A DNA stretch of 53,098 nucleotides from positions 1 to 53,098 of the forward strand of contig JBBSXC010000007.1 in the NCBI GenBank assembly GCA_038045945.1, given 5' to 3'. Position 1 is the first letter of the stretch, and each line of letters begins with the position of its first letter. Made by a program: the position numbers and the translations under genes. Below the pieces are notes generated by a model that made no database searches, was not told the origin of the DNA, and saw nothing but the letters and a program-made list of their open reading frames with translations. Shown here in pieces: positions 47,487 through 49,860 of the stretch. Origin of the DNA: Nanobdellota archaeon. Its GTDB lineage: Archaea; Nanobdellota; Nanobdellia; Pacearchaeales; GW2011-AR1.

Positions 47487-48158
47487 ATGATTACTGATAA
47501 AGAGGCTGATATTGTTAAGCGTTTAGGTATTGATCTTGATCGTCTTAAGAGTGAACAGGTTAAGATTTCTAGAGCTGTTTCTGTTATTGATTCTTTAGAT
47601 TTTGATAATGTTGATTTTTTTGGTTCTTTTAGCAATTTTATTGTTGGTAATAAAATTCTTTGTGGAGTTGTTGTTGTTAATGGTGAGCAGGAGGTTGTTG
47701 AAGAAAAGTTTTTTGTTGATAAAGTTTCTTTTCCTTATTTGTCTGAGTTTCGTTCTTATCGTGAGCTTCCTTCTATGATTAAGGCTCTTAGTCTTTTAGA
47801 GAATAAGCCTCAGCTTGTTCTTATTGATGGTTTAGGCATTAATCATTCTAGGCTTGGTTTGGCAACACACTTTTCTATTAACTCTAGTATTCCATCTATT
47901 GGTATTAGTGATTCTGATTTGGGTTTTGTTATTAAGGGTGATAAGTTTTTTCTTGATGGTCGGCAGGTTGGTTGTGTTGTTCAGTCTAAGGTCGGTTCTA
48001 AGCCTCTCTTTGTTAGTCCTGGTTCAGGCATTTCTATTGATACTTCTGGCAGGATTGTTAAGTCTTTAGTCACTCCCCCTCACAAACTCCCAGGGGTTAT
48101 GAAGCTTGCTCGTAAGTACGTTAAGAGGATCAGTAAAGAAATTTTTGGTAAAGAGTAG
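47487..48158 (+). CDS. nfi: Endonuclease V family protein (divergent)
   Basis: FPY...YRE, LIDGLGINH..LGLATH, PSIGI, PLFVSPG, KLP. Confidence 0.85.
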   Translation: MITDKEADIVKRLGIDLDRLKSEQVKISRAVSVIDSLDFDNVDFFGSFSNFIVGNKILCGVVVVNGEQEVVEEKFFVDKVSFPYLSEFRSYRELPSMIKALSLLENKPQLVLIDGLGINHSRLGLATHFSINSSIPSIGISDSDLGFVIKGDKFFLDGRQVGCVVQSKVGSKPLFVSPGSGISIDTSGRIVKSLVTPPHKLPGVMKLARKYVKRISKEIFGKE

Positions 48159-48173
48159 GCAATATATTTTTTA

Positions 48174-48246
48174 TGGGACTGCCCGGATTTGAACCGGGGT
48201 CGCAAGCACCCCATGCTTGAATCTTACCAAACTAGACCACAGCCCC
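48174..48246 (-). tRNA. tRNA-Pro(GGG)
   Basis: Acceptor GGGGCTG/CAGTCCC; anticodon arm CAAGC-AT-GGG-GT-GCTTG; T arm CCCGG-TTCAAAT-CCGGG. Confidence 0.95.
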
Positions 48247-48334
48247 ATCAATAAAATGGGACAGAGAGATTATTATATAAACTATTTGTAGAACTATCCT
48301 CTTTCACAACCAAGCATTTATTTTTAGAAGTGTA

Positions 48335-49048
48335 TTAATCATATAGCGATGAAGAGACATCAGTAAAAGCTTCTAGGAAAGATTGATAAAACTTAGGGTT
48401 TTTTTCTGCGTGTGTTCTAAGATCTCTACGAGCCACAAATTGTCTGTTTTGAACTGTTTGAAGAGGTACACCTAATATTCTAGCAATCTCCTTACCAGAA
48501 TAACCCTTTCTGTGTTGCATTTCAAAAACTTGATAAGAAAGGGGAGAACTAATTTTATCTTTTAATAATTTCCACCCTTTCTCTGAGTCAATATTAAGTG
48601 TTTTAAGGTCTACTTTTCCGGTTAAGTATTGTAATCCCTTATCTTCAGCAGAAGCTTCGTCAAGACTACTAAACTTGTCTCTTCTTAAACCCCACCCTCT
48701 CTGCGCAACGTTTGTTATCGCAGAGTTAAGGTAACGGAAATATGCTTCGGGATTAGTGTCAAGGGGTTTCTCAGCCCACTTTGTTAAGGAGGTTGTAGCA
48801 ATATCGATTAAGGTTTCTAGAACTTTTTCGAATTTTTTAGGATCAAGAGTTCCTCTTCTTACCATGTTACGAGATCTTTGGTGAACCAGTTGAATAGCTC
48901 TAGGATAATGTCCTTCTAAAAAACTTCTTTTGTCCCCTACCCCATATTCAGCGGCTCTATAATTATGTATAGTTCCCACTGCTTCACTGCTCTGAGCTTG
49001 TTCGTCAATATTAGCGAACAAGGCGGGGTGTTTATCGTTTAGTTCCAT
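48335..49048 (-). CDS. ECF sigma-70-like protein (region 2-like segment plus region 4 HTH)
   Basis: QVFEMQHRKGYSGKEIARILGVPLQTVQNRQFVARRDLR fits the ECF region 4.2 pattern; YFRYLNSAITN...RR...SLDE resembles region 2.3-2.4. Confidence 0.7.
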   Translation of the reverse strand: MELNDKHPALFANIDEQAQSSEAVGTIHNYRAAEYGVGDKRSFLEGHYPRAIQLVHQRSRNMVRRGTLDPKKFEKVLETLIDIATTSLTKWAEKPLDTNPEAYFRYLNSAITNVAQRGWGLRRDKFSSLDEASAEDKGLQYLTGKVDLKTLNIDSEKGWKLLKDKISSPLSYQVFEMQHRKGYSGKEIARILGVPLQTVQNRQFVARRDLRTHAEKNPKFYQSFLEAFTDVSSSLYD

Positions 49049-49194
49049 TTTTGCGAAAATTATCTAGAAATTTTTGTTTTAAAAACTTAACTAGTCCTAA
49101 TTAAGACAAGAAAAATTGGTTTATAAAGCTTCCCTTATTGTTACTACCCTAGAGTTGTATTAAAATAAACTTCTTAAGGCCTAGCTTGACTATA

Positions 49195-49265
49195 TGCACC
49201 GCCCGGGAATTGAACCCGGCTCCCCAGATTGGGAATCTGGAATTCTACCGATAAACTAGCAGTGC
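49195..49265 (-). tRNA. tRNA-Gly(CCC)
   Basis: Acceptor GCACTGC/GCGGTGC; anticodon arm CCAGA-TT-CCC-AA-TCTGG; T arm CCGGG-TTCAATT-CCCGG. Confidence 0.95.
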
Positions 49266-49353
49266 TTCATACTAGTTTATGTTTTGCTATTAAAAACTTA
49301 ACTAAAAAATTTAAAAAATAAAAATTGTAGGTTCTAAAGAGGGTAGAGGTTTT

Positions 49354-49860
49354 TTAGTCCTCTTCACTTTCGCTTTTTCCTATCATTATTCTTCTTTCTT
49401 CTCCCCCTCTTTGTTTTGATAGGTTTCTGCTTACTTCCATTAGCTCCAAGTATAGCCCTTCGCTTCTTGCTTCACTTATTCCCATCCCAGTCATTACTCC
49501 CATGTAGTCTTGGCTTGTTAGTCTTCTTCCTTCTTGCATTCCGAAGTATAGGTGTGTTTCTTTTTTCGCTCTTTTTTCAGCAATTTTTCCTTGTATTATT
49601 GCTCCGTACTTAGGAAATTCCTGCGAGAATTCAGCTACAGCTTCTTTCATGCTTCGCGCTTTTTCTTTATCTTCGCATTCTATTCTAGCATAAACCCTTT
49701 CGCCTGTGAAGTTATCTTCGTATTCTTTTAGGTCTACTCCAGCTGCTATTTTTGGTTTATTTCTTTTTAGTTTTCCTGATAGGCTAGAAATTGGCATTTC
49801 TATTCTGTCAGTAGCTATAAGTTCTATAATTCTTCTTTCTAATGTTTCGTTTTGTGTCAT
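49354..49860 (-). CDS. Hypothetical protein
   Basis: 168-aa charged ORF with a GGAGG Shine-Dalgarno-like element upstream. Confidence 0.75.
   Translation of the reverse strand: MTQNETLERRIIELIATDRIEMPISSLSGKLKRNKPKIAAGVDLKEYEDNFTGERVYARIECEDKEKARSMKEAVAEFSQEFPKYGAIIQGKIAEKRAKKETHLYFGMQEGRRLTSQDYMGVMTGMGISEARSEGLYLELMEVSRNLSKQRGGEERRIMIGKSESEED

Follow-up and report, generated by a model that had tools for sequence, protein, structure and literature searches.

On balance, the gene at positions 48335..49048 on the minus strand of contig JBBSXC010000007.1 (Nanobdellota archaeon, assembly GCA_038045945.1) is probably a fast-evolving, lineage-specific descendant of the extracytoplasmic function (ECF)-type sigma-70-family genes of its phylum, and its product would act as a helix-turn-helix (HTH) DNA-binding regulator. 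The window analyzed is this entire contig of 53,098 nt, one of the 7 contigs of an 847-kb genome (G000) rated 93% complete and 1% contaminated. According to the list of open reading frames (ORFs) and the translation, the coding sequence begins with ATG, includes its stop codon within those coordinates, is present in a single copy in the genome, and specifies a protein of 237 amino acids (aa), here called P0001. Archaea initiate transcription with TATA-binding protein (TBP) and transcription factor B (TFB). A first-pass annotation had nonetheless read a bacterial ECF sigma factor in the gene, acquired horizontally and either repurposed as a DNA-binding or DNA-melting regulator or aimed at the RNA polymerase (RNAP) of a partner cell.

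The C-terminus, which that annotation had assigned to ECF region 4.2, is solidly established as an authentic region 4.2 HTH of the ECF sigma type. Pfam, hhalign, and fold matching place a sigma-4 domain at residues ~155-218 (48395..48586, minus strand). Pfam model Sigma70_r4_2 (PF08281) aligns with residues 173-209 at 28.2 bits against a cut-off of 25.7 (E = 1.5e-6), and a six-frame search of the genome with the model finds the ORF at E = 2.2e-7. Twenty of the 21 NCBIfam families listed are sigma-factor models, all lying on the C-terminal part of the protein (within residues 147-222); the remaining one, pilus_ancill_1 (E = 0.036, residues 82-159), is weak and unrelated. Against a profile of 19 ECF-like ORFs from the same archaeal order, hhalign returned a probability of 95.7% and E = 9.8e-9 over residues 169-214, with sigma-4 as the only part to align, and the recognition helix of P0001 retains the T..R...AR pattern of that alignment. 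These ORFs come from 20 of ECF size that were hand-picked from a phmmer list (258 ORFs in 43 loci); one ORF of 279 aa was dropped, and among the 19 aligned, the region 4.2 model matches in all and the region 2 model in 15.

Predicted structure agrees with these alignments. The single-sequence AlphaFold2 (AF2) model has a predicted local distance difference test score (pLDDT) of 83-91 across the sigma-4 region, and VIA-align superposes that region on CnrH sigma-4 (Z 9.6, root mean square deviation [rmsd] 1.7 Å, 63 residues) and SigR region 4 (Z 9.5), with many more sigma-4 domains below them. SigR region 4 was also the only match in a sequence search of the Protein Data Bank (E = 0.052). The PHROGs comparison gave two weak C-terminal matches, one with a family of sigma factors (E = 4e-4) and the other with HTH DNA-binding proteins (E = 0.002), and no sign of phage origin. 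The LuxR/GerE model PF00196 is absent from the 8 Pfam families that match at E<=10, the top two of which are sigma region 4 models. Derivation of P0001 from the bacterial-type sigma-70/ECF family is thus supported, at least in the sigma-4 domain. Having a region-4-type HTH is not enough to call a protein a sigma factor, because PF08281 also finds matches in all four of the archaeal control genomes.

In the N-terminal half, the first pass had read the order and spacing of sigma region 2, and this reading did not hold up in sequence comparisons. Sigma70_r2 (PF04542), the model for core binding (2.1/2.2) and -10 recognition (2.3/2.4), has no match in P0001 at E<=10. TIGR02937, which had been suggested as a check, scores 20.2 bits, under half of its 42.9-bit cut-off, and aligns just C-terminal residues 165-212. 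When the N-terminal part of the archaeal ECF-like alignment is made into a hidden Markov model, P0001 scores 0.4 bits with it, no better than 310 of 2000 shuffled sequences. For residues 30-150, the hhalign score is 11.3; shuffled sequences average 11.6, and 149 of 300 reach the score of the real one. What the structural models place here is a 35-residue N-terminal extension of low confidence and without a match (48944..49048, minus strand; pLDDT 29-38), then a three-helix domain at residues ~36-120 (48689..48943, minus strand; a possible degenerate sigma-2 domain) with helices at 40-65, 73-92, and 100-117 in both AF2 models, and then a linker at residues ~121-154 (48587..48688, minus strand) that is predicted to be disordered (pLDDT 30-45 in both models).

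By its modeled fold, this half of the protein is compatible with a degenerate sigma-2 domain, and it is here that a working sigma-like factor has to be considered. Such a factor would dock a divergent sigma-2 domain on the clamp coiled-coil of Rpo1, the archaeal counterpart of bacterial beta-prime, while sigma-4 reads the promoter, so that the archaeal RNAP is redirected or assisted. The order and sizes of the parts are those of an ECF protein, namely a helical domain, a linker, and sigma-4; MAFFT sets P0001 colinear with the ECF-like family, and the Rpo1 clamp coiled-coil is nearly invariant within the order. Among the Foldseek matches listed for either model, all are sigma factors or sigma-containing complexes, aligned over ~150-300 columns that span both domains, but with E values of at least 3.9e-3. 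Sigma-2 of SigR (1h3l_B) fits by VIA-align at Z 7.4 in the single-sequence model and at Z 8.1 in the second model (rmsd 2.4, 77 of 78 residues), but three-helix bundles with no relation to sigma factors fit as well or better (4k12_B, Z 9.1; 7s0r_B, Z 8.7). The second model is driven by an alignment to sigma factors, so its high pLDDT is circular. For the ESMFold model in the Atlas, the first three of ten structure matches are SigE clusters, with template modeling (TM) scores of 0.36-0.38 that lie under the Atlas bar. With all of these scores below the tools' own bars, the region 2 sequence signal absent, and the residues once mapped to the core-binding motif changed, we regard a working sigma-like factor as unlikely, and a DNA-binding regulator, rather than a true initiation factor, as the most likely role to propose from the sequence.

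P0001 shares a two-domain layout and a C-terminal sigma-4 domain with the bacterial ECF (group 4) sigma factors SigR, sigma-E, CnrH, and SigH (PF04542 plus PF08281; TIGR02937), and its sigma-4 domain superposes on theirs at Z 8.4-9.6 with 20-28% identity. Unlike them, it has no region 2 match, is longer (237 aa, of which 35 form an N-terminal extension, ~35 the linker, and 20 a C-terminal tail), and has an archaeal promoter and host with no bacterial core enzyme. PhyR offers a precedent for an ECF-derived, sigma-like domain that lacks sigma function and works through protein or DNA contacts; it differs in being joined to a receiver domain and in binding an anti-sigma factor. The sigma-4 part of PhyR is among the fold matches of P0001 (3t0y_C, Z 7.9, rmsd 1.5, 52 residues), but neither a receiver domain nor an anti-sigma partner is present in or adjacent to the P0001 gene.

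In the mechanism that we propose, the N-terminal domain would be a sigma-2 remnant that lacks the motifs for RNA polymerase binding and for melting of the -10 element, and because those motifs appear to be lost, P0001 would no longer be an initiation factor. The sigma-4 HTH would bind DNA sequence-specifically, at a short '-35-like' element close to promoters where TBP, TFB, and the archaeal RNA polymerase work, and through this contact it would modulate transcription by that system; the N-terminal bundle may provide a protein contact or stabilization. The repurposed DNA-binding regulator suggested at first pass remains the most likely role. The DNA-melting role suggested alongside it is unsupported, because melting needs a working region 2, of which there is no sequence evidence.

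How the gene has evolved is best seen in a second genome of the same genus (G001), whose proteins are labeled Candidatus Pacearchaeota in public records; the assignment to DPANN in this analysis was based on that label. The order MinD, endonuclease V (EndoV), tRNA-Pro(ggg), and sigma-like ORF is kept there on the same strands (locus L046), and the ORF next to tRNA-Pro(ggg) is intact, at 166-180 aa. NCBI names its product [quoted passage not shown]. In Pfam, this ORF scores 24.9 bits with the region 4.2 model and 16 bits with the region 2 model (E = 0.01), and hhalign aligns it with the ECF-like profile at 97.5% and E = 7e-12 over 127 columns that cover both domains. A profile made from P0001 and this counterpart together aligns with the ECF-like profile in sigma-4 alone.

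The two proteins have diverged far more than the genes around them. BLASTP pairs P0001 with its counterpart at 23% identity over residues 83-210 (E = 0.007), compared with 85% identity for MinD, 79% for TrmB, 61% for a 168-aa neighbor, 60% for EndoV, and 87% for the N-terminus of Rpo1 between the two genomes. Such a difference (23% versus 60-87%) implies either a very fast orthologue or replacement by another sigma-like gene. In Smith-Waterman comparisons, the whole-protein score of the pair was reached by 4 of 1000 shuffles, and that of the N-terminal halves taken by themselves was reached by 58 of 2000. Beyond the G001 ORF lie tRNA-Pro(cgg), two inserted genes, tRNA-Gly(ccc), a gene that by eye is ATCase (aspartate transcarbamoylase)-like, the homologue of the 168-aa neighbor, and TrmB; to judge from this gene order, the tRNA region is a variable spot. 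The two genes between tRNA-Pro(cgg) and tRNA-Gly(ccc), at 3318-5098 of L046, are lacking in G000 and encode a 413-aa protein with a Fic-like motif (by eye) and a 191-aa phosphoesterase-like protein.

Rapid change is common to all sigma-like genes here, which show 23-34% identity within the genus versus 60-87% for housekeeping genes. The source genome has three further members: a 288-aa gene with regions 2 and 4 (G000:C5:57703-58566), a 267-aa gene with regions 2 and 3 (G000:C1:108721-109521), and a 186-aa gene with region 4.2 (G000:C3:92728-93285). The canonical 288-aa paralogue has 34% identity to its match in G001 and is detected (E<=1e-5) in 10 of the 31 genomes compared. The 186-aa paralogue occurs in 2 of the 31 and was not found in G001.

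P0001 itself appears to stand alone in sequence collections. A word-index search of 5.8 billion clusters returned 318 candidates, of which 1, P0001 itself, was real, and an HMMER search of 1.84 billion representative proteins found no true relative beyond P0001. Joint Genome Institute (JGI) metagenome contigs gave 170 pattern matches, 0 of them confirmed. In 40 related genomes, a single weak match came up, a 99-aa frame with a stop (G035, 17.7 bits, E = 0.001). A 2368-aa animal protein with SRCR and Ig repeats (P0002) came up at E = 2.8e-13 and was rejected, as the value sums 13 repeats of one weak chance match, 32% identical over ~66 residues on the side of the N-terminal 35-residue extension. 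Repeat proteins can yield inflated whole-sequence E values in this way.

Together with the 23% identity to the positional counterpart (60-85% for the neighbors) and the patchy paralogues, this solitude is what one might expect of a decaying, functionless remnant of an ECF-like sigma gene, under relaxed selection and heading for loss. But the reading frame of 237 codons is unbroken in AT-rich DNA, sigma-4 still exceeds the Pfam cut-off, codon usage is native and a TATA box is well placed, and the counterpart in G001 is intact too. The genome, moreover, is a tightly packed 0.85 Mb, and small, tightly packed genomes tend to delete dead genes. We consider a remnant of this kind quite unlikely.

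The region upstream of the gene resembles that of a host gene. A TATA-like box, TTTTTAAAA, ends 28 nt ahead of the ATG, as part of an archaeal BRE (TFB recognition element)/TATA-like promoter at 49071..49093 on the minus strand (TATA at 49077-49085) that is recognized from a direct repeat and its likeness to tRNA promoters. Most of the 38 tRNA genes have, by eye, a TTTAAA-type box ~24-35 nt before the mature 5' end, and the box of the ORF matches it in type and distance, also by eye. The 23 nt around the box recur ahead of tRNA-Gly, at 49282-49304, as a direct repeat (87%), and the 15-nt core, TAGTTAAGTTTTTAA, has two occurrences only in the genome, one at the ORF and one upstream of tRNA-Gly. 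A TTTAAA-type box like those of tRNA genes and a repeat shared with tRNA-Gly thus indicate that the gene has its own host-type promoter, and the archaeal TATA-like element noted at first pass stands. The position of the box would give a nearly leaderless mRNA.

Composition gives the same impression. As for the weak codon skew reported at first, the synonymous-codon usage of the gene is ordinary among 628 long ORFs of the genome, at the 31st percentile; its GC content at third codon positions is 0.27 (57th percentile) and its overall GC content is 0.381 (89th percentile). The 237-codon frame also stays open in DNA of 35% GC. From its sequence features, the ORF is a real, native gene that is probably expressed.

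The surroundings leave little doubt that the host is an archaeon, as the first reading had it. The genome has a two-repeat TBP gene and only one Rpb1-type RNAP gene, of archaeal type, and a search of it for the C-terminal domain of the bacterial RNAP alpha subunit (alpha-CTD) found none; the contig also carries PolB (family-B DNA polymerase), CDC48, an aRF1/eRF1-type factor, and TrmB, along with MinD, endonuclease V, and several aminoacyl-tRNA synthetases. The gene sits alone between two tRNA genes on its own strand, as first described, with ARAGORN and Rfam agreeing on both: tRNA-Gly(ccc) upstream at 49195..49265 (minus strand, Rfam 56.5 bits), 146 nt away, and tRNA-Pro(ggg) downstream at 48173..48247 (minus strand, Rfam 56 bits), 87 nt away.

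Metagenome-assembled genomes can hold contaminant contigs, and a bacterial fragment mis-joined or mis-binned into the archaeal genome would explain a sigma-like gene. There is a possible instance in the comparison set: the ECF ORF of locus L016 (G078:C7:7027-8745), near a contig end, clusters at 90% identity with a Bacteroidales-labeled protein and may be a bacterial contaminant in the bin or a very recent transfer. For P0001, an artifact of this sort is extremely improbable. It lies between its two tRNA genes, with an archaeal tRNA-Pro, in a 53-kb contig that carries the archaeal genes named above; its flanks are syntenic with G001, and its composition and promoter are native. The stretch is also held by re-assembled contigs from 4 runs (two samples of one study, labeled groundwater metagenome), and two contigs, 11,003 and 12,643 nt long and assembled from the two samples, cover 47900-49500 with 0 differences and no joints. 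As the DNA may itself derive from these samples, the spanning contigs show consistency and are not independent proof. Misassembly of the locus, named at first pass as a way in which the finding could fail, is not supported.

Sigma-like genes prove to be widespread in the phylum. Of 301 high-quality genomes, 129 (116 of 225 genera) have a PF04542 match over the cut-off, a count that includes one unpublished genome, G432; in a control set of 14 genomes, the model matched in the 10 bacteria only. Within the order, PF08281 exceeds its cut-off in 41 of 121 genomes. Matches to the region 4.2 model over the cut-off also occur in the order in frames of 950-3016 aa (G013, G097, G104, and G063), and G000 itself has weak matches (17.2 and 14.2 bits) within a 2542-aa frame, at G000:C4:278867-279127. 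This distribution bears on how the gene was acquired. Bacterial-type sigma ancestry, the first half of the original proposal, holds for sigma-4; a singular or recent acquisition does not, given the native composition and promoter, the three paralogues, the 129 genomes, and the counterpart in G001. Recent transfer is not supported.

Nor do the tRNA genes mark a mobile element. A mobile-element explanation was considered and rejected, there being no tRNA-derived att-like flanking repeats and no integrase beside the ORF. A tRNA lies within ~3 kb at 6 of 21 sigma-like loci, which we do not regard as enrichment, and genes between tRNAs are not rare, with four other tRNA pairs in G000 enclosing 1-2 ordinary genes. 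In locus L049 (G186:C11), a canonical 189-aa ECF-like gene at 1070-1831 lies on one strand with tRNA-Arg(cct) and tRNA-Gly(tcc), between which it is placed; it begins 3 nt past the first tRNA, and the same two tRNAs adjoin directly in G000 (C4:168578-168781). The three same-strand, tRNA-flanked sigma-like genes of G000, G001, and L049 may indicate tRNA-cluster insertion or co-transcription.

Genes of this kind have been described before. Sigma-70 genes (fam00359) were reported in DPANN archaea, notably Woesearchaeota (Castelle et al. 2021, Front Microbiol, PMC8204110), and that paper excludes mis-binning, identifies no anti-sigma factors, and calls the mechanism unclear. As with the genes of that paper, P0001 is encoded by a bacterial-type sigma-family gene in a small TBP-bearing genome, no anti-sigma factor (of the zf-HC2 type) was found, and mis-binning is excluded by the neighboring genes. 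P0001 differs in that the region 4.2 model alone matches, region 2 is undetectable, and sequence relatives are lacking. It is probably a divergent extra member of the reported kind, not a new system. A search of the full-text literature found no functional follow-up of the DPANN sigma genes, and in a 2024 Woesearchaeota paper, the word 'sigma' stands for sulfide only.

The search for an anti-sigma partner also enters into another proposal of the first pass, that the protein is an effector aimed at the RNA polymerase of a partner cell; it would be sent into a bacterial partner and capture the polymerase there. The search of the genome found no zf-HC2-type anti-sigma factor, other anti-sigma families being left unsearched; this, the bacterial ancestry of the family, and a fast evolution typical of host-interaction genes would fit such an effector. 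However, the region 2 motifs for binding a bacterial core enzyme are undetectable, a secretion signal or delivery system was neither sought nor seen, and no partner organism is known, so that we rate an effector as very improbable. A further proposal joins the regulator to the archaeal polymerase: rapidly diversifying sigma-derived factors might dock on the archaeal RNAP by placing their sigma-2 remnant against the Rpo1 clamp coiled-coil, and might steer promoter choice alongside TBP and TFB. We hold this to be improbable; if true, it would mean a hybrid bacterial/archaeal promoter selection, with an extreme sequence turnover that comes from an arms race with hosts or viruses.

Several points weigh against our preferred explanation of P0001 as a lineage-specific DNA-binding regulator. 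Both its binding to DNA and its target site are predicted only, and the 4 runs listed as containing the stretch include no RNA run. Non-detection of region 2 from a single sequence is weak evidence of its loss, and both the single-sequence AF2 model and the Atlas ESMFold model put ECF sigma factors nearest the N-terminal half, under the tools' bars. The 23%-identical genes of G000 and G001 could be different sigma genes, each of which entered the same variable tRNA region, instead of orthologues. Finally, selection is not demonstrable by conservation because P0001 has no close relatives, which leaves room for a decaying gene.

Two other features of the genome deserve mention. The 168-aa upstream neighbor at 49354-49860 (minus strand) has no Pfam or PHROG match but is conserved; besides its homologue in G001, at 61% identity, it has a match in G017 at 50% that contains one TAA stop. 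ARAGORN also reports a 97-nt tRNA-Asn with anticodon att at G000:C3:226349-226445, unusual in both length and anticodon, which may contain an intron or be miscalled.

Sigma-70-type genes are common in DPANN archaea, as the 129 genomes counted here illustrate, and have gone unexplained in the five years since they were first reported. They are puzzling because archaea start transcription with TBP and TFB. The gene described here has a native archaeal promoter and a turnover far above that of its neighbors, and its DNA-reading domain alone is recognizable, a pattern which suggests that the family is used, at least in part, as ordinary DNA-binding regulators. As a small soluble protein, P0001 offers a direct test of the role that this family plays.

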